This document shows positions 9,341 through 36,774 of a stretch of DNA of 38,443 nt, one piece after another. Numbering within the stretch: position 1 is the stretch's first letter; each line of letters begins with the position of its first letter. The stretch comes from an uncultured Candidatus Saccharibacteria bacterium (GTDB lineage Bacteria > Patescibacteriota > Minisyncoccia > Minisyncoccales > GWA2-38-27), in NCBI GenBank assembly GCA_964571585.1, contig CAZNBW010000002.1:288-38730 (forward strand), given 5' to 3'. The position numbers and the translations under genes were made by a program. A model generated the notes under the pieces. That model was not told the DNA's origin. It worked only from the letters and a program-made list of their open reading frames with translations, and did no database searches.

Positions 9341-12136
9341 ATGGATGAGCCGAAGGTTTTAATTTCAAAAAAATCCATTAGAACAATGGGAAAAGACATG
9401 GTTCGTGTTAAACGAGATGAACTTGACGTTGAAGAAAAGGGAAAAGATGATCAAAAAGCTTTATTTAAAGAGGTTGAAAAAAGAAAACAGGAGGAGGAAA
9501 GATTAATATCTTTGCAAGAGCAAGGAAAGAAAATTGTCCAAGAGGCCCGTCAAAAGCGGGAATCCGTTGACGTTAAAGCTTTGGCAGACAAGCAAGAAGA
9601 AATGAAAAAACAACAGGAAGCTAAGAGAACTGCAGCCTTGCAAGAATCAAGAAAAAAAGCAGAACAGGAAGATGAAAAAAGAGAACAAGAAGAAAGCAAG
9701 ATGGTAGAGACCAAAAGAATACCTGAAAAACCTGCAGCTATGCCAAAAGCTGTAGCTGAAAGAACAGAGAATGAAAAAGAAGAAATATCTCAAAAAGATA
9801 TGAAAAAGGAAGAGCTTTTAGAAAAAAGAAAAGCAATAGGGCAAGAAAAGACAAAAATCCAAGAAGAACTTAAAAGTTTGGACCCGGACAAAAAGCCTTT
9901 GGATATTAAGAAAAAGGCCATTTTAGAAGAGATAAGAACAGTCGAGCTTAGTTTTCAAGAAACTAAAATTAAAGAAGATGAAATAGAGCAAAAGCTTTCA
10001 GTGATTGAGAAAAGAGAAGCTCAGGCTAAAAACCCCCAGCAAAGAAGGTCTTTGGAAAAAAAGAGATGGAAACTCGAGAAAAAGAGAGAGGAAATAGAGA
10101 AAAAGAGATGGCCTGAAGATGAAAAATTAGAGCAGCTTGAGGCCAGGCTAAAGAGCATAGAAAGGGAAAGTAAGGGCATGGAAGCAAAAGAGCAGGAACT
10201 TTTAAGTAAACAAAAAGAGATTAATAAAAAAGAGCAGGATAATAATTTAAAAATAGAAAGAATTGATTTGGAAGAAACGTTAAAAGATATGGCAGAAAGC
10301 AAGGTCGTGTTTGAGGGTAAGGTGAACATTTTATTTAAGAATAATGAAGAGGCAAAAAACAACCTAAACGTTATTTTAGCAGAAGAAAAAAAGGTTGAGC
10401 AAGAAAAAGCAGAAACTGAGAATAAAGAAAGAGCAGCTGAGAGTAATTCTCAACGAAGAGAGCTGGAAAAAGCCAGATGGCAGATAGAAGAAAGAAGAAG
10501 ACAAACAGAGTCAAAGAGATGGAAGTTGGAGGAGGAAAGAGCAAAAATCTCCCAGGATTTAAAAGATTCTCAAAATAGATTGAAAGCTGTCTTAGATAAA
10601 AAGGAAAGCATTTCTAAGAGAATTGAAGAAATAGATCTTTTATTACAAGGGAAGACCCCGATTGTTCCACCAAAACCATTTATTCAGTCCACTGAACAAC
10701 CCAAAAGGGAGGAACCCAAAGAAGATCTAAAAAGGGGAGAACCTAAAGAAAAGCCTGAAAAAGAAGAACCTAAGAAAGAACCTAAAAAAGAAGAACCTTT
10801 GAAGGAAAAAACCAAGGAGGAAATCTTAAAAGAAGTAGAGGAAGAGAGAATAGTTAGAATAGAAGAAGCCAGAAAAAGAATAGATACCTTAAAAAAAGCA
10901 GCCCTAGAAAGAAAAGAAAGGCAGGAGCAGATGAAAAAAGCTGTCATGCCCTCAAATGCCAGGCAGAAATTGGAGCCTGTCCATGAAGATCCTGATCCTG
11001 GAAAAGAAGAGAGAAGAGCAGAAATAATGAGCCGTTTGAGAACGCCTGTTTCTATATATAAGAAGATTAGTAAATCTGATGATAGAAAACAGACAGGTGT
11101 TCCAACATCAGAAGAAATTATCAGGGTTGTCCCTAAAAAACCAAGTTTTAAAGAAAAGCTTTGGGTGAGGGCATTAATCGTTGCGGCCACCCTAGTTGTT
11201 TTAGCCGGGATACTTACTTTTTGGTATTGGTATTTTAGGATTAGAACTTCAGTTCCTGCTTACCCTCCAGGATATGAAAGGGAAAGAGAGGGAATCAGCA
11301 TTCCCACAGCTCTGTTTAACGTTACAGATACTACCATAATAACAATATCTGATAAAAAAGATCTTTCAGAATCTATCAAGAAGACCTTGGAGTCTTTCCA
11401 GCGTGTGGACAGATTTAAGCGCATAATTATTAAAAAAGAAGGAGAAATTGTTGGAGTAAAAGAATTATTTGAATTGTTAGAAGTTAATATTACAGAGAAC
11501 TTTTACGATAATATACTAGATGAGCCAACTATGTTTATATATTCACAGGGCCAGGGAAATAGATTTGGCTTTGTTGTTAAAACTTCTACTTCAGCTAAAG
11601 ATCTGAATATTGTTTTGAAGGCAGCAGAGCCTACAGCAGAGACAGACTTTGAACCTCTTTTTGTCTTAATGGGCAAAAAAGGTAAGGCCGTAGCCCCTTA
11701 TTTTAAAAATGCTGTAGACATGGAAGACTATACAGGCCTTGATTTTAGGTTCAAGACGTTGGATCAAAATGATCTGGCTATCACTTATGCTGCAACTGAT
11801 TATTATTTTGCATTTTCTTCTTCCTGGGAAAGCATGGAAAGTCTTTTAATGGAGCTTCAAAACTTTTTAGAAAACAAGGTTTTGACGAATGATTTAAAGC
11901 AGGGAGACCAGGGAAAGCAGGTTTCTCTTTTGCAGGGTTGGTTAGCAAAAGATTTAAGTATTGATAGCCCAGGATTTATTTCCGGCATTTACAACCAAGA
12001 AACAAAAGATTATGTTATTCTGTTTCAAGAGAAATATGCCTCAGACATATTAATACCCCAAGGTCAAACCAAAGGGACAGGAATTGTTGATTTAGCCACA
12101 AGAAGAAAACTAAACAATCTTTATTCTGATTTTTAA
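9341..12136 (+). CDS. Giant E/K-rich coiled-coil protein with one TM helix and a C-terminal peptidoglycan-binding (PG_binding_1-like) domain
   Basis: 931 aa. About 600 aa of charged low-complexity sequence with recurring ..RR.LEK.RW..E..R.. units. TM segment LWVRALIVAATLVVLAGILTFWYWYF. C-terminus LKQGDQGKQVSLLQGWLAKD..ISGIYNQETKDYVILFQEKY is PG-binding-like. Confidence 0.8.
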   Translation: MDEPKVLISKKSIRTMGKDMVRVKRDELDVEEKGKDDQKALFKEVEKRKQEEERLISLQEQGKKIVQEARQKRESVDVKALADKQEEMKKQQEAKRTAALQESRKKAEQEDEKREQEESKMVETKRIPEKPAAMPKAVAERTENEKEEISQKDMKKEELLEKRKAIGQEKTKIQEELKSLDPDKKPLDIKKKAILEEIRTVELSFQETKIKEDEIEQKLSVIEKREAQAKNPQQRRSLEKKRWKLEKKREEIEKKRWPEDEKLEQLEARLKSIERESKGMEAKEQELLSKQKEINKKEQDNNLKIERIDLEETLKDMAESKVVFEGKVNILFKNNEEAKNNLNVILAEEKKVEQEKAETENKERAAESNSQRRELEKARWQIEERRRQTESKRWKLEEERAKISQDLKDSQNRLKAVLDKKESISKRIEEIDLLLQGKTPIVPPKPFIQSTEQPKREEPKEDLKRGEPKEKPEKEEPKKEPKKEEPLKEKTKEEILKEVEEERIVRIEEARKRIDTLKKAALERKERQEQMKKAVMPSNARQKLEPVHEDPDPGKEERRAEIMSRLRTPVSIYKKISKSDDRKQTGVPTSEEIIRVVPKKPSFKEKLWVRALIVAATLVVLAGILTFWYWYFRIRTSVPAYPPGYEREREGISIPTALFNVTDTTIITISDKKDLSESIKKTLESFQRVDRFKRIIIKKEGEIVGVKELFELLEVNITENFYDNILDEPTMFIYSQGQGNRFGFVVKTSTSAKDLNIVLKAAEPTAETDFEPLFVLMGKKGKAVAPYFKNAVDMEDYTGLDFRFKTLDQNDLAITYAATDYYFAFSSSWESMESLLMELQNFLENKVLTNDLKQGDQGKQVSLLQGWLAKDLSIDSPGFISGIYNQETKDYVILFQEKYASDILIPQGQTKGTGIVDLATRRKLNNLYSDF

Positions 12137-19177: not shown

Positions 19178-19249
19178 GGGGCCATAGCTCAGTTGGTAGA
19201 GTGCCCCGCTTCGGTGGGGAGGTCGGGGGTTCAATTCCCTCTGGCTCCA
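19178..19249 (+). tRNA. tRNA-like gene with alanine acceptor identity (G3:U70, A73) but an aberrant anticodon arm
   Basis: 72 nt. Acceptor ggggcca/tggctcc with G3:U70, D arm gctc-agttggta-gagt, T arm ggggg-ttcaatt-ccctc, all close to canonical tRNA-Ala. The anticodon arm is ccccg-CTTCGG-tgggg, a 5-bp stem with only a 6-nt loop (equivalently a 6-bp stem capped by a UUCG tetraloop). The only 7-nt-loop register (CTTCGGT, anticodon TCG) leaves 3 Watson-Crick pairs. Confidence 0.7.
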
Positions 19250-19261
19250 GTTTTTTTTACA

Positions 19262-19284
19262 AGTCCTGTTATCAGGACTTTTTT
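19262..19284 (+). terminator. Rho-independent terminator after the tRNA-like gene
   Basis: agtcctg-ttat-caggact followed by T5. Confidence 0.7.
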
Positions 19285-19321
19285 CTTGAAATTATTTTCT
19301 AAAAAAGTTATAAATAAATAT

Positions 19322-20185
19322 ATGAGAAAAATTTTAATAATAGCTGTTCTAATAATAATTGTTATTGCAGCAGCAGTATACTGGTTTATATCCAAACCGG
19401 AATCGGTTGTTGAGCCAGAGGAAAATTATCTTTCTATTATAGAAACAGAAACCGTTTCTTTCGGCGAGGGGCATACCTATAGTATAGATTCAGCAGAGTT
19501 TATAATATATCCTCCTGATTTGGATAATTTTAACTTTGGCTATTTTGAAGCATATAATAATGGGGAACTAGTATATGAATCGGTTCCTCAATACGCTGTT
19601 TTAGATTTTTTAGCCTTTGAAACCAGTGATGGAAAGTATTTTGTTCTTAGTGATTATTCTGGCGGAGCTCACTGCTGTTTTAAGGAATACATCTTCTTTT
19701 TAAACGATGAAGAATTAAAGCCTATTAAAGAACTTTATACTGGAAATGCCAGTATAAGAGAAGAGGATTTAGTATTAAAGGATAATAATATTTACCTTCA
19801 GGTTTTTGATGACAGATTTGCCTATTTTTATACTCCTTATGCCAATTCTTACTTTTTCTTCCAGCATTTAAAGGTTGATGGAGATGAGATTGAAATAGCT
19901 AACAGTAGTTTTGTATTAGATCATTTACAGGAAGTTGAGAAGTGCGAAAACGAGATTGAAGAGATACTGCCAGATAGTTCTTTGGACTTTGAAAGTTATG
20001 CTCCAAAACTTGTCTGCATTGCAGTTAACTATATAATAGCAAGTCAGGAAGATAAGGCCTGGAACAAGGTGCAGGATTATTTTACCAAGATTCCTTTGGA
20101 GTTTTACGGCTTAAGTGTTGATTTTGAAACATTTAAGAATGAATTTCTTGATCTCTATCAATTAGAATCATTTTCAGAAAACTAA
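19322..20185 (+). CDS. Hypothetical membrane-anchored extracytoplasmic protein
   Basis: The track ORF begins inside the tRNA-like gene, so I trimmed it to the ATG at 19322 (MRKILIIAVLIIIVIAAAVYWFI..). I recognise no family. Confidence 0.7.
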   Translation: MRKILIIAVLIIIVIAAAVYWFISKPESVVEPEENYLSIIETETVSFGEGHTYSIDSAEFIIYPPDLDNFNFGYFEAYNNGELVYESVPQYAVLDFLAFETSDGKYFVLSDYSGGAHCCFKEYIFFLNDEELKPIKELYTGNASIREEDLVLKDNNIYLQVFDDRFAYFYTPYANSYFFFQHLKVDGDEIEIANSSFVLDHLQEVEKCENEIEEILPDSSLDFESYAPKLVCIAVNYIIASQEDKAWNKVQDYFTKIPLEFYGLSVDFETFKNEFLDLYQLESFSEN

Positions 20186-20765: not shown

Positions 20766-21365
20766 ATGAAAAAATTATACATCGTTCCATTATTATTAAT
20801 ATTAATCTCAGCTGGCTGTTCTACTGAAGAGCCAGTTAATGTTATTCCGAAAAATAACATCATTCAAGAAAAAAACATGACAGCTTTAATTCAAACAAAT
20901 AAAGGAGATATTAAAATAGAGCTATTTTCTCAAGATGCTCCAAACACAGTTGATAACTTTGTTAATTTGGCGAGGCAGGGTTTTTATAATGCTACAAAGT
21001 TTCACAGAGTCATTAAGGGTTTTATGATTCAAGGGGGAGATCCTTTAAGCAGGGATGATTCTAAAAAGGACTTATGGGGTACTGGCGGTCCAGATTATGT
21101 TTTTGCAGATGAGATTTATAAGAACAACAAGAATAATGCTGGTACTATTGCCATGGCTAACAGGGGGTCTGATACTAATGGCAGCCAATTCTTTATAAAT
21201 ACAGTGGATAATAATTATTTAGACGCAAAACATACTGTTTTTGGCAGAGTTATTGAGGGCATGAATGTTGTAATGGCTATTGAAAACACTCCTACAGATC
21301 AAGCTGACAGGCCCATTGAAGATATTGTTGTTCAAACAATAACAATTCAAGAAGATGAGCAGTAA
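20766..21365 (+). CDS. Cyclophilin-type peptidyl-prolyl cis-trans isomerase, lipoprotein
   Basis: Lipobox LISAGC, then FHRVIKGFMIQGGDP, ..GTIAMANRGSDTNGSQFFI.., HTVFGRV. Confidence 0.92.
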   Translation: MKKLYIVPLLLILISAGCSTEEPVNVIPKNNIIQEKNMTALIQTNKGDIKIELFSQDAPNTVDNFVNLARQGFYNATKFHRVIKGFMIQGGDPLSRDDSKKDLWGTGGPDYVFADEIYKNNKNNAGTIAMANRGSDTNGSQFFINTVDNNYLDAKHTVFGRVIEGMNVVMAIENTPTDQADRPIEDIVVQTITIQEDEQ

Positions 21366-21780
21366 AGAAGCCCCAGACTTTATTAACCTAGGCATAGTTG
21401 TTAATGATAACGGGGAGGTTTTAATGATCCGCAGGAAGAATAAAGAAAAGGGTAGGACAGGAGCAGTTTTAGAATGGGCTTTTCCTGGAGGAAGGCAGCA
21501 TTTGAACGAAAGCAGGAACGAGTGCGTTAAAAGAACCATATTAGGCGAGACCGGCTATAGCATTGAAGTTGTTAAGGAAATAGTTTTAAGGATAGAACAT
21601 GTTCAGTTTCCCATAATGGTAGCTTATCACCTTTGTGGGTTAAGGTCTGGAAAGCCGGTTGCTAAGCCAAAAGAGCCCAAGGAAATAGCCGAGATTAAAT
21701 GGATTAAAAAGCAAGATATAAGGGATGTTATTACAACTAATCTAGATAAAAAGGTAGCCCAAGAACTAAAGATAATATGA
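21355..21780 (+). CDS. NUDIX hydrolase
   Basis: Nudix box GGRQHLNESRNECVKRTILGETG. Confidence 0.8.
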   Translation: MSSKEAPDFINLGIVVNDNGEVLMIRRKNKEKGRTGAVLEWAFPGGRQHLNESRNECVKRTILGETGYSIEVVKEIVLRIEHVQFPIMVAYHLCGLRSGKPVAKPKEPKEIAEIKWIKKQDIRDVITTNLDKKVAQELKII

Positions 21781-21783
21781 AAT

Positions 21784-22179
21784 ATGAATAAAGTTGTTAA
21801 GGTTCTAATGTATGTTTATAGAAATAATAATGGAAAAAAAGAGTTCTTTGTATTGCATCGCAAAAGAGGAGATGTTGTTGTTCTGACTGGCCATGTAGAA
21901 GATGAAACCCTAGAACAAGCAGCAGCCAGGGAAGTTGAAGAGGAACTGGGCGTAAGGCCCGAAAATATAATAGATTTAGAAACGTTTATAGATGTTATTG
22001 TTCCAGACAAAGAAGTAAAATCAAGGGAACATGCTTTTTTAATAAAGATTCCTAATAAAGATGTTCATTTCTTAGAGGGAGACGAAAAACACCAATGGCA
22101 CTCTTTAGAAGAATTGCCAGATGTCCTAACTTATTCTAATCAAAAACAGCCACTTAAAAAACTTGACAAGGTTGTTTAA
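21784..22179 (+). CDS. NUDIX hydrolase
   Basis: Nudix box TGHVEDETLEQAAAREVEEELG. Confidence 0.8.
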   Translation: MNKVVKVLMYVYRNNNGKKEFFVLHRKRGDVVVLTGHVEDETLEQAAAREVEEELGVRPENIIDLETFIDVIVPDKEVKSREHAFLIKIPNKDVHFLEGDEKHQWHSLEELPDVLTYSNQKQPLKKLDKVV

Positions 22180-23676: not shown

Positions 23677-24729
23677 ATGAAAATCAGAGTTGCTATAGTC
23701 GGCGTGGGAAATTGTGCCAGTTCATTTCTTCAAGGTATTGAATATTATAAAAATGTTGATGAAAATTCTCCTCCGGTGCCGGGATTGATGCACAGTAATC
23801 TTGGAGGATATCTTATTCGCGACATTGAAGTTGTCGCAGCTTTTGATGTAAACAGTAACAAAATTGGCAAGGACATTTCCGAATCCATTTGGATGTCACC
23901 GACGAATTCTCGTAAATTTGCCGATGTTCCAAATAAGAGCATTTTTGTAAGCGCGGGTTTTCTTGGAGACGGGATTGCTCCTCATATGCAGAGCTACTTT
24001 CCACTTCGTGAAGATCCGAAACGTGTCGTTGAGGTAATAAAAAACAGCGGGACAGAAATATTAATTTCATTTCTTCCCGTTGGGTCACAAAAAGCAACTC
24101 GGTTCTATGCTCAGGCTTGTCTTGACTCTAAAGTAGCTTTTATCAATGGCGTTCCAGAGTTTATCGCATCCGATTATGAATGGGCGGAGAAATTTAAACA
24201 AGCAGGAATTCCGTGTGCGGGTGATGATATTCAAAGCCAGGTTGGTGCAACCATTCTTCATCGTGTGCTTGTGAGTCTTGTGCGTGAACGCGGACAGACA
24301 ATAGAAAACTCGTATCAACTTGATATTGGCGGTAATATGGATTTCGATAATCTGACGGACCGTCAGAGGCTTACCTCAAAAAAAATTTCAAAGACCGGTC
24401 CGATTATCTTTGAAGCAGGCACAAAAGATGTTAAGGTTGTTCCGGCGGATTATATTCCCTTTCTTGCCGATAACAAAATTGCTTACATTAATATTAAAGG
24501 AAGACAATTTGGCGATTTTCCTTTTGAAATTGAGCTTAAGATGTCAGTTGAAGACTCTCCAAACAATGCCGGAGTTATGGTTGATGCGGTCCGTGCCATG
24601 AAGCTTTCTCTCGACAGAGGGCTTAGTGGATATCAGGATTGGAGCGCATACTTTTTCAAGCACCCCCTTCATCTTCTTCCATTAGTAAAAGCAAGAAGTG
24701 TAGTAGAAGGTTTTATTAATGGTAAGTAA
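23677..24729 (+). CDS. ino1: myo-Inositol-1-phosphate (inositol-3-phosphate) synthase, short bacterial/archaeal type
   Basis: 350 aa. Colinear with the mycobacterial Ino1 as I recall it: IRVAIVGVGNCASSFLQGIEYY, PGLMH, LPVGS..ATRFYAQACLD..VAFINGVPEFIAS, GDDIQSQVGATILHRVL, GGNMDF.N..DR.RL.SKKISKT, DSPNNAGVMVDAVRA. RBS aaAGGAGatagtatc-ATG. Confidence 0.9.
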   Translation: MKIRVAIVGVGNCASSFLQGIEYYKNVDENSPPVPGLMHSNLGGYLIRDIEVVAAFDVNSNKIGKDISESIWMSPTNSRKFADVPNKSIFVSAGFLGDGIAPHMQSYFPLREDPKRVVEVIKNSGTEILISFLPVGSQKATRFYAQACLDSKVAFINGVPEFIASDYEWAEKFKQAGIPCAGDDIQSQVGATILHRVLVSLVRERGQTIENSYQLDIGGNMDFDNLTDRQRLTSKKISKTGPIIFEAGTKDVKVVPADYIPFLADNKIAYINIKGRQFGDFPFEIELKMSVEDSPNNAGVMVDAVRAMKLSLDRGLSGYQDWSAYFFKHPLHLLPLVKARSVVEGFINGK

Positions 24730-24743
24730 CAAAAAAGTTCATG

Positions 24744-24786
24744 AAAAAAAGGGTAATCACATAAATGTGGTTACCCTTTTTTATTT
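24744..24786. terminator. Bidirectional terminator between convergent ino1 and the minus-strand operon
   Basis: 11-bp stem gggtaatcaca / tgtggttaccc (one G-U), loop taaa, A7 upstream and T6 downstream. Confidence 0.75.
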
Positions 24787-24791
24787 GTTCC

Positions 24792-25466
24792 CTACATGAG
24801 TTTAATTGAATGGTTTGGATTAACTAAATTTACTTGATTTTCTAGTACAATAGTCAGTGGTTCTGTTCCGTAGTTAGTAAGTGTCTGTTTCTCAATATAT
24901 CCGCCAGATTTTTCTGGGATGGCGATGATATCTCTGTTTAGGGTTTTAGAAAGTTTTTGTACTATTTTTTCATCAGAGGTTTTGTAATGGCATGCGATTG
25001 AGAATCCTTTAATGATTTTGAGTCCTACTGCCTCTGAAGAGGTGAGGTTTTTTGCCTCTGTTGTAGTGCGTATGTCTTCGCCGAGAATGATAGCTCCAGC
25101 GCTACCACCATAAAGCGGTATACCCCTTTGAGCCGCTTCACGAAGATAATTCTCAAAACCTGATTCGCGGATTTCTTTAAGAAGTTTTATCGTGTTGCCT
25201 CCGCCGATGTATACACCAGCAATATTGTTTACTTTATGGCGTGGATTAAGATCTTCCCACATTTCAATGGTCACAACGCCGAGTGGAGTCATGGATGAGC
25301 GAAACCATTTTAAGCAAGATTGGTACGGTTTAGAACGTATAGCGTTCGGAATATATACAAGAGGTTTTGCAAGGTTCAGTTTTTTAACGAATTGTTCGTC
25401 AAGAAGCTTCGAGTCTTTCTCGTCTCCACCTCCTGCCAGAAAAATATGTGTAGTTTTTCTATTCAT
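24792..25466 (-). CDS. Peptidase S51 (dipeptidase E/cyanophycinase-like, class I GATase-like fold) family protein
   Basis: ..HIFLAGGG.., VYIGGGNT, PLYGGSAGAIILG (nucleophile-elbow Ser). I prefer the ATG at 25466 (AAGGAG 6 nt upstream; ATGA overlap with the upstream stop) to the track start at 25490. Confidence 0.75.
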   Translation of the reverse strand: MNRKTTHIFLAGGGDEKDSKLLDEQFVKKLNLAKPLVYIPNAIRSKPYQSCLKWFRSSMTPLGVVTIEMWEDLNPRHKVNNIAGVYIGGGNTIKLLKEIRESGFENYLREAAQRGIPLYGGSAGAIILGEDIRTTTEAKNLTSSEAVGLKIIKGFSIACHYKTSDEKIVQKLSKTLNRDIIAIPEKSGGYIEKQTLTNYGTEPLTIVLENQVNLVNPNHSIKLM

Positions 25467-26638
25467 TTTATTCTCCTTTTGATTTTCCATACCCGTGTTA
25501 TGGGAATAACTTTTTTCTTTATTGCTTTACGTAGAAATTCTTCGTGACTTTGTTCAAATGATTCATCAATTCTCAAGACACGGTTGGCTTCAAGATTAAA
25601 ATCCCGATTTACTTCTCGCCAAATCACAGAATACGTATGTTCTTGTGATACTATGAGATCTGTAAAGGATGACCATTGTTTATGGTAATAACGTACGAGC
25701 TCATAGAGATTAAGACATTGTGCTTCTTCCATAATTAATCTAATCATGGTGCGGAGTTTTGATCCTTGATTTTTGTGATTAGGCACAACATCGGATCCTG
25801 CCATTAGTGTCGCCGTCCGGATTGCATCAAGTGTCACTCTTTTATGTATTATAACACACGAGAGCGGCCCGATGCTATCAAAATAGGAAGGGGACTTGTT
25901 TATAGCCCATATAAGACGTTCAAATCCTACGCCGATATCGCTCAAAGTTGCTACGGTATTGAATGGTTGAGGTATGTTGAAGAAGAAATTCGCAACACCA
26001 ATTTCCAGTCCGCCGTAGTTTATTTTGATCATCTCTGATGTTACTATGCGCCCGGTCCAATCATTATCGGCACGTTTAACCTTAAGACAAAGACCACTAA
26101 CATAAAGACCAAGATTTGAGAATAAATTTAACCAATGGTCTAGCGTGTTGAAATGGTCTTTTATCGTGGCATTCCAACATTCTGTTGCGCTATGTATGAA
26201 CGATGTGGAAGCACCATCAATCGTATCAACGAAGTCGATACCTTGCAATCGGATAACTGGTTGAAGCATTGAACATTGTTGTTGGTCGTCCTTTAAAGAT
26301 TTGCCATAGATTAGATCATCATAGATTTGACCAGCAGTGCTCGCGAAGAGAGTCCGTTCGTCGTTGCGAATAATTGCAATGGGTGTTTCTAGTTGATATC
26401 CTTGCGCAGGAAAGAATTTACGGAAAATTTCTGCGCATTCTTTTAGTTCAAGATATAACCTGGGGGCAGGAATATTAAGAAATTGGTAGCTGTTCGCACA
26501 ACTATATGAACCACAATGTGGTAAATCTCGTTTTGTGTAGTATTCCTCAAAACAAACGGGACACCGTTTTAGTTGCCAGTTTCGGCTGGCGAAAAAGTCA
26601 TTGCGTGCGGCGATTATAACGGAATATAGTTCTTTCAT
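25463..26638 (-). CDS. Stand-alone alanyl-tRNA-synthetase catalytic-core paralogue with N-terminal Cys4 zinc-ribbon-like segment; no editing or C-Ala domains
   Basis: Colinear with the E. coli AlaRS N-terminal domain as I recall it. FRKFFPAQGYQLETPIAIIRNDERTLFASTAGQIYDDLIYG vs [41 protein letters not shown]. QPVIR vs QRCVR. LEIGVANFFFN vs IEIWNIVFMQFN. LSDIGVGFERLIWAI vs SVDTGMGLERIAAVL. LDAIRTATLMAGSDVVPNHKNQGSKLRTMIRLI vs [35 protein letters not shown]. N-terminus has CPVC..x14..HCGSYSC. The ATG at 26638 has AAGGAG 8 nt upstream; the track start is a TTG at 26656. Confidence 0.75.
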   Translation of the reverse strand: MKELYSVIIAARNDFFASRNWQLKRCPVCFEEYYTKRDLPHCGSYSCANSYQFLNIPAPRLYLELKECAEIFRKFFPAQGYQLETPIAIIRNDERTLFASTAGQIYDDLIYGKSLKDDQQQCSMLQPVIRLQGIDFVDTIDGASTSFIHSATECWNATIKDHFNTLDHWLNLFSNLGLYVSGLCLKVKRADNDWTGRIVTSEMIKINYGGLEIGVANFFFNIPQPFNTVATLSDIGVGFERLIWAINKSPSYFDSIGPLSCVIIHKRVTLDAIRTATLMAGSDVVPNHKNQGSKLRTMIRLIMEEAQCLNLYELVRYYHKQWSSFTDLIVSQEHTYSVIWREVNRDFNLEANRVLRIDESFEQSHEEFLRKAIKKKVIPITRVWKIKRRIK

Positions 26639-26652
26639 TTTACATTCTCCTT

Positions 26653-27876
26653 TCAATAAAGCTTGATGGTTTTTGTCAGTAATTCTTCTGTAATTTTTGG
26701 AATTCGTTCCAGCTCTTCTTTTGTTATCCGCATAATAGTTTTCTCGTCGTATTTATTAGCGATGCGGACAATTGTTTGCCATGGTTTAGTTAGCAGTTGA
26801 CCGGCTTGGCTAATTAGCAATACTTCGCAAGCGCTTTGTGTCTCTTGGTAGATTCGTTTCGCTATTTTATGCGCTGCAACATTGTATAACTTGCCAGTAT
26901 AATATTTTGGATTTTTACCACACGCACCTTCAAGATTTATCGGCCTAAGTGGCGTAATTAGACCATTGATCCGATTGCCGCGGCCGACAATTCCTTCATC
27001 ACCGGACTCAATTGATGAACCTATGGCAGTAAGGTATACATCGTTTCGTGTAAAATCATCTCTTGTATTAAGCCAAAGAGTTATTTCTGTCTCGGGGAGA
27101 AGTACACTTAGTCTGTTTTCAATCAATACTCTTGTCTCTGCGAGATTTTCTCGATAAACATCAATCGATTGAACATATTGGGCAATCTGTGGTAAACAGA
27201 TGGTTATTCCGCATTGATGCCCGATTTTTGTTGCCATGATCTTTATATCGGTTCCGAGCCAAGGATATTTTTGTTTAGTGAGGACGGAATTAAGTTCTTC
27301 TTCAATCTTGAGTACCATTTGTTCAAGTGGAGATAGTGGAGCATATCCACATCCTATAGAAGTATCATTATTGAGAAGACGGTCGTATCCTTTCACTTCA
27401 CTGATATTTCGTGGTGTAAAAAGATGAGCACGAGAACCAGTGCTCTGCTTAGTTTTTCCGGGGCCGCTTGCGCTACTAACAAACCAGTGTGTCTTTATAT
27501 CTTGTTTAGAATTGATAAGGTCTCCGAACATTTTGGAAAAAAAGTTCCTGGTTTCTAGTTCAAGCAGGTCGCGCACGGGAATTTTTTCATTAGCAAAAGA
27601 TACCGAAGCGCGACCGTTGAGAATTACTCGAATAGGACTTGTAATTTTTCCTTTGCCGAAATCAACTTCCGTAGTGCCACCAAGCACCGATACTTTGTCG
27701 AAGTTATGGTGCATTATAGCTCCGAAATGATTCTGTGTATAACGTGAGTACGCCACAGATAAGTTTTCAGCTAATGCATCAGCGATAGTATCGGGATGTC
27801 CAATGCCTTTTCGTTCAATAACTTCAATTTTTAGTTCGTCTAATTGAGGGGTGTGTATTATATTCAGACTTTTCAT
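26653..27876 (-). CDS. Archaeal-type S-adenosylmethionine synthetase (MAT, AdoMet_Synthase family) homologue, divergent
   Basis: 407 aa. VIERKGIGHPDTIAD, HHNFDKVSVLGG, NDTSIGCGYAPLSPLEQMVL, GTDIKIM, VYLTAIGSSIESGDEGIVGRGNRINGLITPLRPINLEGACGKNP..GKLYNVAAHKIA are colinear with the M. jannaschii-type MAT as I recall it. There is a distinct insert (SSASGPGKTKQSTGSRAHLFTPRNISEVKGYDRL) where the archaeal enzyme has IGQGS.DL. RBS aAAGGAGaaaaa-ATG. Confidence 0.8.
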   Translation of the reverse strand: MKSLNIIHTPQLDELKIEVIERKGIGHPDTIADALAENLSVAYSRYTQNHFGAIMHHNFDKVSVLGGTTEVDFGKGKITSPIRVILNGRASVSFANEKIPVRDLLELETRNFFSKMFGDLINSKQDIKTHWFVSSASGPGKTKQSTGSRAHLFTPRNISEVKGYDRLLNNDTSIGCGYAPLSPLEQMVLKIEEELNSVLTKQKYPWLGTDIKIMATKIGHQCGITICLPQIAQYVQSIDVYRENLAETRVLIENRLSVLLPETEITLWLNTRDDFTRNDVYLTAIGSSIESGDEGIVGRGNRINGLITPLRPINLEGACGKNPKYYTGKLYNVAAHKIAKRIYQETQSACEVLLISQAGQLLTKPWQTIVRIANKYDEKTIMRITKEELERIPKITEELLTKTIKLY

Positions 27877-28048
27877 TTTTTCTCCTTTTGAACATAGATT
27901 TAATTTTCAATGAACTTTTTGTTCTTTAAGATTATCCCAAAGAATATAATAGTTTAACACTTATATGTTTTTTTGTAAAGCAATTTTAAGTAATTTATTC
28001 TTAGGCAAGCTTTTATTCTGAGACCGTTTTCAAGGTATAATTAAGCAG

Positions 28049-28318
28049 TATGAAATTAAAGATTAATCCATATAACAAAAAGGTTAAAAAAGTTTCAAAA
28101 AGAAAAAGACAGAATATTAAAAGCTATTGGCAATTTTGAAATTCATCATATTGGAAGTACAGCGGTGCCTGGTTTAGGGGGTAAGGGAACTGTAGATATA
28201 TTAATTGGCGTAGATAATTGGAAACAAACAAAGGAAACTATCGAGAAATTAAAAAAGATTGGCTTTTTTCACTTTCATCCAAAAGAAAAAGGCAGAATGT
28301 TATTTTGTGTAAAGCCAG
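28049..28318 (+). pseudogene. GrpB/UPF0157-family gene remnant, frameshifted and 3'-truncated
   Basis: ATG at 28049 gives MKLKINPYNKK.. and then hits a stop. The family-typical ..KFQKEKDRILKAIGNFEIHHIGSTAVPGLGGKGTVDILIGVDNW.. continues in another frame after the A-runs at ~28075-28095. Homology ends after ..HFHPKEKGRMLF where the hairpin repeat begins, so roughly half of a normal GrpB protein is missing. Confidence 0.7.
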
Positions 28319-28354
28319 TTATTTTGTGTGAAGCCAGGCTTCACACAAGTTTTT
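28299..28354 (+). repeat. Hairpin repeat family, copy A (partial 5' half plus full palindrome)
   Basis: gttattttgtgtaaagccag followed by ttattttgtgtgaagcc-a-ggcttcacacaa + gttttt. The 12-bp perfect stem spans 28324-28348. Related to the copy at 28989-29020. Confidence 0.8.
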
Positions 28355-28363
28355 AATTGTTAG

Positions 28364-28945
28364 TTATTTTCTAGATAAAACAAAAATCCAGTTCATTTCA
28401 CTGAAAGAAAATACTTCATAGTACAATATATTAAAGCCAGTATTATTTAAATAATTCTTTAACTCCCTTTTTTTAAACATAGAGAAAATTCTAGTATCAT
28501 TTTTATTCTTTTTTCTATTCTGATTTTCCGGGACTATTATCGCGAGGATGCCGTTTTTCTTTAATATTCTCCTAAAATCCAAAAGTGTGTTTGGTAAATC
28601 AGATTTATCAATATGAGTAAATGCAGAAGAACACCATATACCGTCGAATGATTTTTCATTGAACTTTAAATCAAGAAAGTCTGCTATTTCGAATTTTCCT
28701 TTACGATTTTTCTTGGCGAAATCTACCATTTTTTTTGATAAGTCAATTCCCAAACAATCTAATCCTTTTTTTGTTAAATAATCAGTATCATGACCAGAAC
28801 CACAGGCAATGTCAAGAACTTTTTTCCCTGGAAGTAATTTGATGAATCTATTAATTTTATCCCCTAAAACAACAGAACCATTTTTAGTATATTCTTTAAT
28901 ATATTTATCGTAAAATTCTATAGTTTTTTTTGTATATTGTTTCAT
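28364..28945 (-). CDS. Class I SAM-dependent methyltransferase
   Basis: Motif I VLDIACGSGHDTDYL, DLSKKM, FDGIWCSSAFTHI. AT-rich, with no RBS upstream, unlike its neighbours in this segment. Confidence 0.8.
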   Translation of the reverse strand: MKQYTKKTIEFYDKYIKEYTKNGSVVLGDKINRFIKLLPGKKVLDIACGSGHDTDYLTKKGLDCLGIDLSKKMVDFAKKNRKGKFEIADFLDLKFNEKSFDGIWCSSAFTHIDKSDLPNTLLDFRRILKKNGILAIIVPENQNRKKNKNDTRIFSMFKKRELKNYLNNTGFNILYYEVFSFSEMNWIFVLSRK

Positions 28946-28988
28946 CTATTTTTATTTATTATAACATGGTAAAAATAAAAAGAGCAGT

Positions 28989-29045
28989 TGTTATTTTGTG
29001 TAAAGCCAGGCTTTACACAAATCTTGTGCTTGCCTTGGGCAAGTC
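28989..29045 (+). repeat. Hairpin repeat family, copy B, plus a terminator-like hairpin
   Basis: gttattttgtgtaaagcc-a-ggctttacacaa (stem 28996-29020), then cttgcc-ttg-ggcaag + tctttt (29029-29049). The latter resembles the cttgcc-tca-ggcaag+T5 at the end of the 184-bp repeat; a partial copy (ctcgggcaagttttt) lies at ~22781-22795. Confidence 0.8.
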
Positions 29046-29229
29046 TTTTGTTTTTGGGTTGTTTTTGTTTTAAGGATATTTAAGGATATTTTTTACGGCA
29101 CAATATTAGGAGGCGACGCTTCCTAAGTCTTGCCTCCTAATTTCTATGTAATAAGCCGGGCTTATCACATAGATTAAACCAGGCTTAGCGCGAATCTTAT
29201 GCTTGCCTCAGGCAAGTTTTTGTTTTAAG
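29046..29229 (+). repeat. 184-bp direct repeat, copy 2 (identical to 23215..23398)
   Basis: See copy 1. After copy 1 there is a 12-nt insert (ctcatttttaag) before the shared gcgg. The motif aagggaaacagaaaaa recurs downstream of both copies (about 23505 and 29259). Confidence 0.9.
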
Positions 29230-34572: not shown

Positions 34573-36774
34573 ATGTATTTGACAGATATGTTAATTATGT
34601 TAATAAGAAAGATGAAGGAAAATTTACTAAAAAAGCATACAGCAGTTTTTGTCTGTATTTTGTTAATAGCTCTTTGGGCGCCAAGGAGTTTTGTTTTTGC
34701 TTCAGATTATAAGATTTATAACTGTCAATTTAGTGGTGCGTCTATGACCCAAGAGGCAGAATTTAATCCAGAAACTGGCATGGTTTCCCTAAAGGGTTTT
34801 TGGTCAATAAATAAAATAGATTATATAGATGGCGATAATTGGTTTACTACTTGTGTAGATGGTTGGTATGGTCCTGGTCCTTTTGGCAGCTATCCATGGA
34901 GAGATTTAGTCTTCTTTGCCAGCACTCATGAAGACGGAGATTATTTGGCCTATGCTGGTTATGACGGTTCTTATTTATTCTTTTCTGTGCAGAATAATAT
35001 TTTAATATATCCTTTACTTTTTTCTGTTTTTCAGCCAAACGAAGATGGATTTAGTTTTGAAAATCACTGTCCAGTGTATTTTGATGAACAGCTTAACATG
35101 CCAGTAGCAAGAACTTGGGATATGTTTGTTCAGTTTTTCGGCGAAAATGCAACAATGGTAGGAGATAATAGAGGTTTTACTGCGGAACGTTATTTTGAAG
35201 AAGAATATGCTAAATATTATTCAAAATGCGGTGCTTGCGATGGTTTTTCTGGAACAAGTTTGATAAATTTTGAAAACTTAGAACAGTTAAATTCAGGAAT
35301 TTTTAATATGCCTTATTACGATAATTTATATTCTCAAAACATTAATGATGATATCAGAGAAGCAATAGCATACCAACAAGGGTTTCAGTTTAGCCAAGAA
35401 TCGATTTCTTATTTTAATAATTTAGAAAGACAGTCTAATAAGTCGCCCAAATTCTTTTATGAGAGAATAAAGCAATCTATTGATAATAATGAAATGTTAG
35501 TTGTTTGGATTCGAGAAATACCTAAATTTTGGGAGTTATTAAAAAAGGAGGGTGGTCATGCTCTTGTGCCTTATAAATATGAAGAAGATAATTTAAATAA
35601 TAAAGGATATGTATATGTTTATGATTCTAACTATCCTGGAGACAATAATAGAATTATAGAATTTGATTTAGAAAAAGATGAATGGGCCTTTGAATTTGAA
35701 AAAGATTTTCTAATTTGGGACGGAGATATATTTGATTCTTATTTAACTATAGCGACGATTCCTTTAGATATGCGTTTGGATAGAGGTATTGCTCCTTGGG
35801 GAGTAGAAGTTCCACCATATTATTATATCGCCAGTGTTAATGAAACGATTGACCCTTTTTTTGATAATGGAAAAGGAAAAAAGATTGGTTTTCTAGACGG
35901 TGAATTTGTAGACGAATTCGAAGATGGTTTATATTTTAATATTCTAGCTCAAGGCCAAGGAGAACCTCCTGGATTTTATTATTTGCCCCAGAAAGATGTT
36001 TATGATTTAAATCTTTATGGGAGAGAAGAAGATGATATAGATTTTGTTGTATTTGGTAATCAGTTTTCAGCAAAGCTTAAGGCTGATATTGATTTGAACG
36101 CAACAGACAATATTAAATTAGATCAAAATTCTTTAACATATAGTACAGATGATGATTATAAGAATTATTCAGTTAGTTTTACAAAAGAGTTTGATAATTT
36201 GAGTAGGCTTATAGAAATTAATACAAGCATCTCAAAAGAAGATATTGATACAATAAAATTAACAGAAGGTGGTTTAGAATATATTAATAACGGAGGCGCC
36301 AAAACTTATGATTTGTTATTTAAGCAAAGGGGTGTAGATAGGGGGGAAGTTTCTTTCTCTGGCATAGAGATTAGCCAAAATGAAACTCAGGTCATTGAGA
36401 TATTAAATCAAGATGACATTAATAGCTCTGAAATAATTATTGAAATTGATAAAGACAGTGATGGAATAACTGACGAGATAAAAGGAATACAGTTATTTTT
36501 TGAAGATCCGAAAAGAGAAACTAAATTGATTGTTAATACCACTAGTGAAACTTTTCATTTTATTGCTCAAGATAAAGACTCCGGAGTTTTAAAAGCAGAT
36601 AAGATGGAAATTAAAAATAAGGCGGGGGTAATTTTAATAGATTATAAAAGCGAAGACATTAGTTTTAAAGCAACAATAAAAACTGGGCACAAGGATTTTT
36701 GTTCAGCTTTGATGAAAGATAAAAAAGATAAAAGGCATTATCTATTAATAGATAAACCAGGGGAAGAATTATGA
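34573..36774 (+). CDS. Large secreted protein: novel N-terminal domain shared with the 4461..6296 protein, plus a papain-like Cys/His signature region
   Basis: 733 aa. Signal/TM (HTAVFVCILLIALWAP). Aa 47-140 are ~50% identical by eye to aa 432-527 of the second pilin fusion. KCGACDGFSGTS (aa 218-229), GGHALVPYKY (aa 327-336), YDSNYPG. The true start may be the ATG at 34612. Confidence 0.8.
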   Translation: MYLTDMLIMLIRKMKENLLKKHTAVFVCILLIALWAPRSFVFASDYKIYNCQFSGASMTQEAEFNPETGMVSLKGFWSINKIDYIDGDNWFTTCVDGWYGPGPFGSYPWRDLVFFASTHEDGDYLAYAGYDGSYLFFSVQNNILIYPLLFSVFQPNEDGFSFENHCPVYFDEQLNMPVARTWDMFVQFFGENATMVGDNRGFTAERYFEEEYAKYYSKCGACDGFSGTSLINFENLEQLNSGIFNMPYYDNLYSQNINDDIREAIAYQQGFQFSQESISYFNNLERQSNKSPKFFYERIKQSIDNNEMLVVWIREIPKFWELLKKEGGHALVPYKYEEDNLNNKGYVYVYDSNYPGDNNRIIEFDLEKDEWAFEFEKDFLIWDGDIFDSYLTIATIPLDMRLDRGIAPWGVEVPPYYYIASVNETIDPFFDNGKGKKIGFLDGEFVDEFEDGLYFNILAQGQGEPPGFYYLPQKDVYDLNLYGREEDDIDFVVFGNQFSAKLKADIDLNATDNIKLDQNSLTYSTDDDYKNYSVSFTKEFDNLSRLIEINTSISKEDIDTIKLTEGGLEYINNGGAKTYDLLFKQRGVDRGEVSFSGIEISQNETQVIEILNQDDINSSEIIIEIDKDSDGITDEIKGIQLFFEDPKRETKLIVNTTSETFHFIAQDKDSGVLKADKMEIKNKAGVILIDYKSEDISFKATIKTGHKDFCSALMKDKKDKRHYLLIDKPGEEL

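Follow-up and report, generated by a model that had tools for sequence, protein, structure and literature searches.

A co-conserved gene trio of methionine adenosyltransferase-like, alanyl-tRNA synthetase-like and S51 hydrolase proteins in bacteria and archaea: a candidate small-molecule pathway

Why should genes for a methionine adenosyltransferase (MAT), a truncated alanyl-tRNA synthetase (AlaRS) and a peptidase of family S51 be joined in one operon? The question is raised by a 38,443-nucleotide stretch of DNA from an uncultured Candidatus Saccharibacteria bacterium (contig CAZNBW010000002.1 of assembly GCA_964571585.1), here called the window, in which these three genes lie one behind the other on the - strand. 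An earlier sequence-only reading of this DNA had proposed a small-molecule pathway with an aminoacyl-nucleoside or aminoacyl-polyol as its product. The analysis described here showed that the trio is a co-conserved unit across two domains of life. From their sequences the MAT and AlaRS homologues appear to be dedicated paralogues, and the cassette is assigned to the class of small-molecule pathways that depend on a paralogue of an aminoacyl-tRNA synthetase (aaRS). That its product is a conjugate of a nucleoside, an amino acid and a cyclitol is a reading to which we give about an even chance.

A co-conserved unit in Bacteria and Archaea

The family alignment of the AlaRS-like protein was scanned against one genome per species and against the JGI metagenomes, giving 10 and 28 loci respectively. 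Further loci were added by exact-protein look-ups, to 47 non-duplicate loci in all. Where the sequence reaches 1.3 kb or more upstream (35 loci), a MAT-like gene is present no farther than 8 kb from the AlaRS-like gene in 33 cases, and in most loci it is the immediate upstream neighbour on the same strand. Likewise, 38 loci extend 0.8 kb or more past the AlaRS-like gene, and in 34 of these the S51 gene is found 3' of it. Fusions link the same proteins: AlaRS-like to S51 in P0040 (617 aa), P0048 and L032, S51 to a methyltransferase in L043, and AlaRS-like to a methyltransferase in P0283. By their record labels the hosts include Saccharibacteria, Patescibacteria and Gracilibacteria metagenome-assembled genomes (MAGs), Woesearchaeota and Aenigmatarchaeota; further hosts are an uncultured archaeon, represented by a contig of 791 kb, and the source of a JGI contig whose backbone is archaeal (family-B DNA polymerase, EF-2). 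Homologues from Nitrososphaerales MAGs are among the closest relatives of both the MAT-like and the AlaRS-like protein. The sequence-only reading had staked its hypothesis on such co-occurrence, and about 45 independent loci across Bacteria and Archaea do have the trio, in a recurring order on contigs of sufficient length.

A divergent branch (P0092), present in two ENA metagenome contigs (L050 and L051), has the order 532-aa protein of unknown kind, radical S-adenosylmethionine (SAM) protein (314 aa), AlaRS-like protein, His_Phos_1 phosphatase and S51. The 6.9-kb contig carries no MAT-like gene; thus the AlaRS-like/S51 pair can exist without an adjacent MAT gene.

In the window the trio is on the - strand and nearly all other genes are on the + strand. 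The MAT-like gene (26653-27876, 407 aa) comes first, followed by the AlaRS-like gene (25463-26638, 391 aa) and the S51 gene (24792-25466, 224 aa from its coupled start). Direct reading of the strand confirmed the AAGGAG ribosome-binding site that had been claimed for each: at 27887-27882, 5 nt ahead of the first ATG of the MAT-like gene (27876), at 26652-26647 for the AlaRS-like ATG at 26638, and at 25478-25473 for the S51 ATG at 25466. The MAT-like stop codon, TGA 26655-26653, has the AlaRS-like AAGGAG directly after it. The program-made list of open reading frames (ORFs) starts the AlaRS-like frame at a TTG (25463-26656, 397 aa) and gives the S51 frame as 24792-25490 (232 aa). The ATG at 26638, preferred earlier over the TTG, is taken as the real start because a length of 391 aa is shared, with few exceptions, by the protein's database entry (P0001) and its nearest homologues (about 60-74% identity). 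The strand also carries the 4-nt ATGA stop/start overlap (25466-25463) reported to couple the AlaRS-like and S51 genes. A bidirectional intrinsic-terminator hairpin (24745-24782; 17-bp stem with T-tracts on both sides) terminates both the trio operon, 3' of S51, and a convergent gene for myo-inositol-phosphate synthase (MIPS). Upstream of the operon a consensus scan gave a weak promoter-like site on the - strand (27951..27979, TTTACA-17-TAAACT with extended TG); the count of such sites in the region is not above shuffle expectation.

The three proteins

The first protein matches the AdoMet_Synthase profile PF01941 with 339 bits (E=4e-101) and stays below all five NCBIfam MAT cut-offs (best 343.6 bits vs 435; the others 281-323 vs 481-577). 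Its AF2 model, with a predicted local distance difference test score (pLDDT) of 93.9, has template modelling (TM) scores of 0.87-0.91 and 32-33% identity to the archaeal MATs 4HPV, 7P83 and 6S81. The profile and the model together identify a three-domain MAT fold of the archaeal type, as had been proposed. The insert of about 35 aa described with it is better seen as an exchange. In the alignment with the Mj, Ss and Pf MATs a 35-aa segment ('SGPGKT..S.GSRAHLF.PR...VKGYD'; residues 134-168, 27373..27477, - strand) stands in place of the canonical 21-aa loop 'GQGS.DLV..F', a net gain of 14 aa. This remodelled element is the flexible or gating loop, which governs the choice of substrate and nucleotide in MATs according to a preprint (bioRxiv 10.64898/2026.07.10.737877).

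The loop contacts are known from archaeal enzymes. In TkMAT, D144 hydrogen-bonds the adenine N6 and L145 packs on the methionine side chain (PMC3853416); D146 and L147 are their equivalents in MjMAT (PMC9298006). Both the Asp and the Leu are missing in 82 of 82 members of the subfamily, where the aligned positions are R/K/E and E/W/Q. The position of MjMAT I351 is S, N, A or T in the same 82 sequences, and L147A/I351A is the engineered pair that enlarges the S-alkyl pocket of MjMAT (PMC9298006). New basic residues appear at R83, K141 and R/K143 in these members. The catalytic His (GHPD), the stacking Tyr, the two ribose Asp and the GRGNR motif are kept; H27, Y281, D210, D293, H56, N58 and N170 are invariant in 49 subfamily sequences, and subclade B has Q instead of N58. 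The residue roles follow those assigned in archaeal MATs, including TkMAT H33, Y271, D201/D283, H62, N64 and N161 (PMC3853416, PMC9298006).

This signature is common to every MAT that is linked to an AlaRS-like gene and is not found in the Mj, Ss, Pf and Tk MATs. All 120 best database matches to the window protein, at 47% identity or more, belong to the cassette-type subfamily, and the five that were looked up (P0134, P0189, P0194, P0195 and P0213) all adjoin an AlaRS-like gene. Members are present too in Bacillus sp. A116_S68, whose complete genome has 4.38 Mb, and in many Kitasatospora and Streptomyces. Bacillus and Streptomyces should carry bacterial metK, and alaS and serS as well. Since no SAM-consuming enzyme is present among the cassette genes of the Kitasatospora and Streptomyces loci, a local supply of SAM fails to explain the actinomycete gene. 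The sequence-only reading had cautioned that the MAT homologue could be the housekeeping SAM synthetase of its organism. That explanation was rejected on the strength of the cassette linkage, the signature residues and the occurrence in Bacillus and Streptomyces, and the sequences place the protein in a dedicated subfamily.

Two subclades can be told apart by their motifs. The window MAT belongs to one with 'HHNFDK', whose usual partners are a dTMP-kinase-like gene and MIPS. The second (L004, L006, L010, L032 and L035-L037) has 'HHQxDK', 'GASL-SGDIG' with a one-residue deletion, and 'SQNGG'; a radical-SAM/SPASM gene lies directly upstream in six of its seven loci, L004 being the exception.

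In MAT chemistry a nucleophile attacks C5' of ATP and triphosphate leaves (PMC3853416). Because the contacts to the methionine side chain and the adenine N6 are lost and the catalytic machinery is kept, transfer of a nucleosidyl group to a pathway nucleophile is proposed. The MAT-like enzyme would carry out the SN2 reaction at C5' of a nucleoside triphosphate, with loss of the triphosphate, and would not make housekeeping SAM. There is an appreciable chance that the reaction is itself new for the fold.

The second protein is a stand-alone archaeal-type AlaRS catalytic core with its helical domain. Its AF2 model (pLDDT 92.3) gives 2ZZE, 2ZTG and 3WQY as the top Foldseek matches (E about 1e-18, TM 0.68-0.74), and the family profile matches the P. 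horikoshii and A. fulgidus AlaRS (2zze/2ztg) with E about 3e-16. The curated models score it far below their cut-offs: 19.6 bits vs 30.3 for PF01411, 56.5 vs 744.7 for TIGR03683 and 22 vs 457 for TIGR00344. Across 59 family members R130 (the motif-2 Arg), W194, D234, E240 and R241 do not vary. The class II active-site scaffold recognized earlier is thus real, with its motif-2 Arg and motif-3 G.ER. Motif 2, which had been called lost, has diverged along its strand and its Arg is retained. The motif-3 segment D234-R241 (DIGVGFER; 25916..25939, - strand) aligns with VDTGYGLER of archaeal AlaRS; besides the invariant residues, G238 is nearly invariant and G236, at the E. coli G237 position, is G, S or N.

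The earlier suggestion to ask whether the alanine pocket survives has a divided answer. Among the E. coli residues that we take to form this pocket (M43, N212, V214, D235 and G237), D235 alone is kept, as D234. By motif correspondence, M43 is replaced by an invariant Q104, V214 by N217 and N212 by V215, and the G237 position varies. The protein therefore appears from these alignments to keep the machinery for ATP and the alpha-amino group, with a side-chain pocket that is now polar. Adenylation is plausible because the motif-2 Arg, W194, D234 and the motif-3 ER are invariant, and the protein is proposed to be an ATP-dependent amino-acid ligase.

The N-terminal Cys4 ribbon (C26, C29, C42 and C47; 26498..26563, - strand) is nearly invariant in the family. 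It had been taken for an extra element, CPVC/HCGSYSC, a view that was rejected: the ribbon (CxxC...CGSYxC) aligns with 'W.RKKC.VC......CGDPPC' of the P. horikoshii and A. fulgidus AlaRS. By this alignment the Zn ribbon is inherited from archaeal AlaRS, not added.

Clustered at 50% identity, the matches of an exhaustive profile search have 281 representatives at E<=1e-30 and 506 at E<=1e-10; canonical AlaRS sequences are largely under the threshold. Among the 150 best family matches listed, full-length proteins are mostly about 320-440 aa, a few are shorter fragments and three have 568-674 aa. There are 392 actinomycete homologues, all annotated 'hypothetical protein'. The window protein ends at 391 aa and no tRNA_SAD or DHHA1 match was found in the scanned window ORFs, in agreement with the description of a protein of about 390 aa that lacks the editing and C-Ala domains. 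The alternative that it is the decayed N-terminus of the only alaS, or one half of a split gene, was rejected in view of the very low AlaRS-model scores, the large family of its own and the lack of editing and C-Ala domains in the window. Judged by these searches it forms a sizeable and distinct family.

These data bear on the plainest explanation of the operon, that a housekeeping SAM synthetase, a decayed or split alaS and a dipeptidase simply happen to be adjacent. NCBI and JGI do label the MAT homologues 'methionine adenosyltransferase', and N. equitans has a split AlaRS. Against this stand the gene order and the fusions, conserved across two domains of life, and the MAT scores below every equivalog cut-off together with the altered loop. 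The AlaRS-like score of 56 bits against 745, the family of at least 281 clusters at 50% identity, the cassettes of Bacillus and Streptomyces, and the lack of an editing or C-Ala domain match among the scanned window ORFs tell against it as well. We give the explanation almost no credence.

A weightier alternative keeps the protein in contact with tRNA. The AlaRS-like protein would be a tRNA-dependent aminoacyl transferase that moves Ser or Ala from tRNA, charged by a linked or a housekeeping synthetase, to a nucleoside intermediate. A precedent exists in AcmD, an AlaRS copy, and AcmF, a truncated AlaRS-like transferase (PMC12945691). The AF2 model shows that the helical domain of the tRNA-recognition type is retained, and a gene for seryl-tRNA synthetase (SerRS) lies beside or near the AlaRS-like gene in Bacillus, Kitasatospora, Streptomyces and Gracilibacteria. 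However, the motif-2 Arg, D234 and the motif-3 ER are invariant here, whereas AcmF has lost its ATP-binding residues. The family consensus has His at the position of A. fulgidus AlaRS N359, the Asn that presumably reads G3:U70 of the tRNA, and most loci of candidate phyla radiation (CPR) bacteria and DPANN archaea have no dedicated aaRS. On this evidence a tRNA-dependent transferase is rather improbable.

The third protein matches PF03575 with 88.5 bits against a gathering cut-off of 23.9, and falls below the equivalog cut-offs for PepE (61.2 bits vs 156) and cyanophycinase (35.6 vs 126.6). All 32 relatives share S130, H168 and E193 (numbered from the 232-aa ORF); the Ser codon is AGC 25103-25101. 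The Ser aligns with the PepE Ser and sits in the nucleophile elbow GGSAGA, and the His aligns with the His of 7C9B. These results bear out the assignment to the S51 serine peptidase-like proteins, more narrowly as a serine hydrolase of the PepE/cyanophycinase type. The substrate is predicted to be an amide or ester of an aminoacyl-sugar or aminoacyl-nucleoside, not an Asp-X dipeptide.

The same protein also matches the GATase_3 and SNO profiles, from which a different partnership can be drawn. The AlaRS-like and S51 proteins would be a two-part amidotransferase, the first adenylating a carboxylate in the manner of AsnA and the second, as a GATase-like domain, delivering ammonia from glutamine. 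The fusions in P0040, P0048 and L032 mirror a synthetase-GATase architecture. However, the nucleophile is the invariant Ser of an S51-type GGSAGA elbow and not the Cys of triad glutaminases, which makes this reading unlikely; the GATase scores lie at or below the gathering cut-offs, and S51 is dispensable in the actinomycete and Bacillus versions of the cassette. Its probability is very small, though above that of three ordinary neighbours.

Partner genes, surroundings and the proposed pathway

The MIPS gene of the window (23677..24729, + strand, PF01658) is convergent to the trio and scores 387 bits in TIGR03450 against a cut-off of 638. Of the 47 non-duplicate loci, 14, the window included, have MIPS no more than 4 kb from the AlaRS-like gene. 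Other recurrent partners are a dTMP-kinase-like P-loop kinase (13 loci), a radical-SAM/SPASM enzyme (10), a His_Phos_1 phosphatase (7), a GT4 glycosyltransferase (6), class-I methyltransferases (several loci) and ABC exporters. In L018, L047 and L048 a PIG-L deacetylase gene lies directly 3' of a GT4 gene that itself follows S51. The glycosyltransferase matches generic GT4 models only; the PIG-L partner has weak best matches to MshB and Mca, with 42.7 bits vs 224 for MshB.

SerRS genes are present in five loci. Exactly four loci, all firmicute or actinomycete and all with SerRS, have no S51, and Gracilibacteria L018 carries both, in the order SerRS, MIPS, MAT, AlaRS-like, S51, GT4, PIG-L, His_Phos_1. 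In Bacillus (L014) the order is SerRS, AlaRS-like, MIPS-like, MAT, followed by an IolI/IolE-like TIM barrel, a short-chain dehydrogenase/reductase (SDR) and an ABC transporter. The actinomycete loci L049 (Kitasatospora), L052 (Streptomyces albidoflavus) and L053 (S. noursei) have a six-gene order of MAT-like, APH(6)-like kinase, His_Phos_1, SerRS, GT4 and AlaRS-like. The Bacillus SerRS, beside the AlaRS-like gene, scores 504 bits in TIGR00414, and those of Kitasatospora, Streptomyces and Gracilibacteria, near it, are Pfam-annotated genes of 430-431 aa. The cluster SerRS of Bacillus and Kitasatospora are 48% identical and each has 33-35% identity to that of Gracilibacteria, values that are uninformative on kinship across phyla.

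The cassette also shows signs of mobility. Integrase genes flank it in L016 and L041, a resolvase/methyltransferase/helix-turn-helix block in L048 and transposases in L014, and the integrase and resolvase genes indicate that it travels as mobile cargo. The Streptomyces and Kitasatospora cassettes lie among relaxase, MobC, SPDY and insertion-sequence genes, and the actinomycete version is carried on conjugative or integrative elements; versions that lack S51 are found in Bacillus and, on mobile elements, in hundreds of Streptomyces/Kitasatospora. In the window the trio unit has a G+C content of 0.39-0.40 against about 0.28-0.35 on its 3' side.

Such surroundings invite the interpretation that the cassette is a mobile conflict system, directed against phages or competing cells, in which the biosynthesis runs as proposed below to a nucleotide or nucleoside poison and the role is immunity. 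The integrases, resolvase block, transposases and relaxase/MobC/SPDY elements fit it, and so does the window island with its higher GC and inverted orientation. The dTMP-kinase-like partner is a further point in its favour, as are the weak scores of the radical-SAM partner against prokaryotic viperin and MoaA. However, that enzyme carries a SPASM domain, unlike viperins, and no effector or sensor domain is evident. PADLOC-DB v2 has no match for the MAT-like, AlaRS-like, S51 or MIPS proteins, and only the neighbouring methyltransferase matches mad2; the PHROGs models are likewise silent on the three core proteins, and a known defence system or phage protein was rejected. A conflict role is improbable, slightly more so than the tRNA-dependent transferase.

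The reading we prefer is a dedicated pathway in which neofunctionalised MAT and AlaRS paralogues build the nucleoside/amino-acid/cyclitol conjugate. This product would bear an amino acid and, in the majority of versions, a cyclitol, an amino sugar or both. Here the co-conservation, fusions, folds and residue patterns are observed and every chemical step is inferred. MIPS would make inositol phosphate and so supply the cyclitol. The most attractive nucleophile for the MAT-like enzyme would be a cyclitol hydroxyl, giving a 5'-O-inosityl-adenosine ether. Such a bond occurs in adenomycin, where the adenosine C5' is ether-linked to C3 of an L-chiro-inositol that also bears L-gulosamine (PMC6540904). 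The ether fits MAT-type chemistry, because an SN2 reaction with an O-nucleophile gives a C5' ether. Where present, GT4 and PIG-L would add a hexosamine and de-N-acetylate it, like MshA and MshB of the mycothiol pathway. The AlaRS-like enzyme would activate an amino acid with ATP and ligate it to the intermediate in the way of MshC; serine is the best guess for its substrate because of the polar pocket and the linked SerRS. The S51 Ser-His-Glu hydrolase would take the aminoacyl group off again, for self-protection, proofreading or activation. In Firmicutes and Actinobacteria the cluster SerRS would substitute for S51, the spare enzyme being an alternative route to self-resistance or a supplier of Ser-tRNA.

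The small-molecule pathway of the sequence-only reading is consistent with MIPS, GT4, PIG-L, kinases, phosphatases, a second SerRS and ABC exporters as partners. What it said of amino-acid use by the MAT-like enzyme, of the AlaRS-like substrate and of the S51 role keeps the standing of inference. An adenomycin-type C5'-O ether as the product of the MAT-like enzyme is unlikely, if still worth serious attention. The same holds for the full joint proposal, in which the first non-SAM member of the MAT superfamily forms this ether, the AlaRS paralogue is a tRNA-independent serine ligase convergent with MshC, the product is a mobile weapon against seryl-tRNA synthetase in CPR bacteria, DPANN archaea and Streptomyces, and S51 or a spare SerRS gives immunity.

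Several observations weigh against the conjugate pathway. MIPS is found in only about one third of the loci, many of whose contigs are short. The window trio has only MIPS and a repeat-bracketed methyltransferase beside it and no GT4, PIG-L, kinase or extra SerRS nearby, so that its product may be simpler or different; it may be a simpler aminoacyl-cyclitol-nucleoside, or genes for the missing steps may lie elsewhere. It is paradoxical for a ligase to be fused to a hydrolase that would undo its product, unless the hydrolase is selective. As to adenomycin itself, its L-chiro and L-gulo stereochemistry would need epimerases, which are seen in some loci only, and no sulfotransferase was found in the Kitasatospora locus, which has a 274-aa ORF of unknown kind with no Pfam match. 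Finally, H56, N58, N170 and D293, the binders of the methionine carboxylate and amino group, are still conserved in the MAT-like subfamily, and because of this the enzyme may still bind an alpha-amino acid and not a cyclitol.

The last point is the starting point of the strongest single competitor. The MAT-like enzyme would make SAM or an S-, O- or N-adenosyl amino acid from methionine, homocysteine, homoserine or diaminobutyrate. The AlaRS-like enzyme would activate this and couple it to an acceptor with an amine or hydroxyl group, for example GlcN-inositol. The result would be a conjugate like mycothiol but with a head resembling SAM, and S51 would cleave its amide. The conserved head-group binders (roles from PMC3853416) speak for it, as do the position of the MAT-like gene immediately upstream of the AlaRS-like gene in most loci, the remodelled and polar motif-2 region of the AlaRS-like pocket, and the methyltransferase and radical-SAM partners and methyltransferase fusions, which point to SAM chemistry. 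However, the AlaRS pocket is small and gives no sign of opening enough for an adenosyl side chain, and the Streptomyces cassette has no SAM-using enzyme. We know of no natural product in which an adenosylated amino acid is joined by an aaRS-like ligase. This scheme is doubtful, though of higher standing than either the transferase or the conflict system.

Should the conjugate pathway prove correct, a SAM synthetase and an aminoacyl-tRNA synthetase, which rank among the most conserved enzymes in central metabolism, would have been co-recruited into a compact and widely transferred small-molecule pathway. The MAT fold would gain a new type of reaction, and a second independent aaRS paralogue would act as a mycothiol-style ligase. 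Cyclitol-nucleoside antibiotics, adenomycin among them, would acquire a set of candidate genes. Candidate pathways to specialised metabolites are few in CPR bacteria and DPANN archaea, whose metabolism is usually considered minimal, and this would be one of them.

Upstream of the trio lies the class-I SAM-dependent methyltransferase gene (28364..28945, - strand, Methyltransf_11/25). Homologous methyltransferases are found near the cassette in L005, L007 and L039; the window gene is possibly an accessory tailoring gene, a link that is tentative. Direct repeats of about 70 nt (28281-28353 and 28972-29025), which are 82-89% identical, flank it. Each repeat holds a palindrome with a 12-bp stem, TGTGTRAAGCCAGGCTTYACACA, of which the window has just these two copies, where chance would give 0; more degenerate repeat copies lie at 29140-29226. 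The arrangement has the look of an inserted cassette or of a terminator element that has been repeated. A 63-aa ORF with weak similarity to GrpB (28165-28356, + strand), situated between the methyltransferase and MAT-like genes, is probably a gene remnant and suggests rearrangement at the island's upstream junction.

Beyond MIPS, 2.6-3.4 kb downstream of S51, are two tandem NUDIX hydrolase genes (21355-22179). A NUDIX gene also lies 3' of the cassette in L048 and near it in L052, and a link to the pathway is possible. Farther off, a tRNA-like gene at 19178-19249 scores 58 bits in the Rfam tRNA model and overlaps the TTG start of the ORF 19193-20185; ARAGORN assigns it no normal anticodon ('tc', tRNA-???). 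Two large ORFs, 9341-12136 (931 aa) and 34573-36774 (733 aa), have no Pfam match; around the first of them the AT skew is extreme (+0.36 to +0.48) and the GC skew strong.

Comparison with known systems

In a full-text literature search no paper was found that treats this combination of genes, a MAT paralogue whose role is other than making SAM, or the biosynthesis or gene cluster of adenomycin; the earlier statement that no described pathway combines the three families agrees with this. Public databases label the proteins 'methionine adenosyltransferase', 'hypothetical protein' and 'Type 1 glutamine amidotransferase-like' or 'dipeptidase E'. At least 120 sequence clusters of the MAT subfamily, at 47% identity or more, are annotated as methionine adenosyltransferase. 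Metabolic reconstructions of genomes with the cassette may be wrong because the MAT subfamily and the AlaRS-like proteins are so annotated.

Each of the three proteins can be set beside a known relative. The archaeal MATs (MjMAT 7P83, SsMAT 4HPV, PfMAT 6S81 and TkMAT 4L4Q) have in common with the MAT-like protein the fold, the catalytic His, the Tyr, the ribose Asp, GRGNR and the His/Asn/Asn of the methionine head group. The MAT-like protein differs in the small or polar residue at the I351 position, which mimics the L147A/I351A pocket, and in its linkage to an AlaRS paralogue. Peptidase E and cyanophycinase (MEROPS S51) resemble the third protein in the S51 Pfam score, the GGSAGA elbow and the conserved His and Glu, whereas the cassette protein is below their equivalog cut-offs and is fused or coupled to an aaRS paralogue.

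The AcmF/AcmD pair of ascamycin is alike in having a truncated AlaRS-like protein, made up of catalytic and tRNA-recognition parts with no editing or C-Ala domain, beside a complete aaRS copy, in a nucleoside-antibiotic cluster. However, AcmF is of bacterial type, tRNA-dependent, and has lost its ATP-binding residues, whereas the cassette family is of archaeal type, keeps the adenylation residues and has SerRS only in a minority of loci. The residues for ATP and alanine activation lost from the AcmF active site include changes of D to E and N to Q (PMC12945691); the AlaRS-like family shows no loss of this type.

Albomycin producers offer a comparison for the extra SerRS. Their second SerRS is a target copy that confers self-resistance, and extra full-length SerRS are found in the Bacillus, Kitasatospora, Streptomyces and Gracilibacteria cassettes; the cluster SerRS may instead supply Ser-tRNA. 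The analogy with microcin C drawn in the sequence-only reading did not hold. None of its parts (the E1/ThiF-like MccB, a precursor peptide, the S66 peptidase MccF) was found in the gene tables of the annotated loci. A microcin-C-like system was rejected, as there is no MccB-type enzyme or precursor peptide in these loci and the peptidase is S51.

The closest functional parallel is the mycothiol pathway (Ino1, MshA, MshA2, MshB and MshC), which likewise uses MIPS, a GT4 glycosyltransferase, a PIG-L deacetylase, a phosphatase and an aaRS paralogue as a tRNA-free ligase. The ligases differ, MshC being a class I cysteinyl-tRNA synthetase (CysRS) paralogue and the cassette protein a class II archaeal AlaRS paralogue. 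Mycothiol synthesis has no counterpart of the MAT paralogue or S51, and the cassette loci have no MshD. Orthologues of MshA, MshB and MshC were not found in the cassette loci, the GT4 being generic, the PIG-L far under the MshB score and the ligase not CysRS-like. By this comparison the resemblance is one of functional logic, not of membership.

The chemical parallel is adenomycin, the cyclitol nucleoside antibiotic of Streptomyces griseoflavus. Its formula, C25H39N7O18S, adds an L-serine amide and a sulfate to the three-part skeleton described above, and its building blocks map one-to-one onto cassette-linked gene families. The adenosine would come from the MAT-like enzyme and the cyclitol from MIPS, with IolI-like and SDR or radical-SAM enzymes for its epimerisation. 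The amino sugar would be contributed by GT4 and PIG-L, the anionic ester by a kinase, and the serine by the AlaRS-like enzyme, the SerRS or both.

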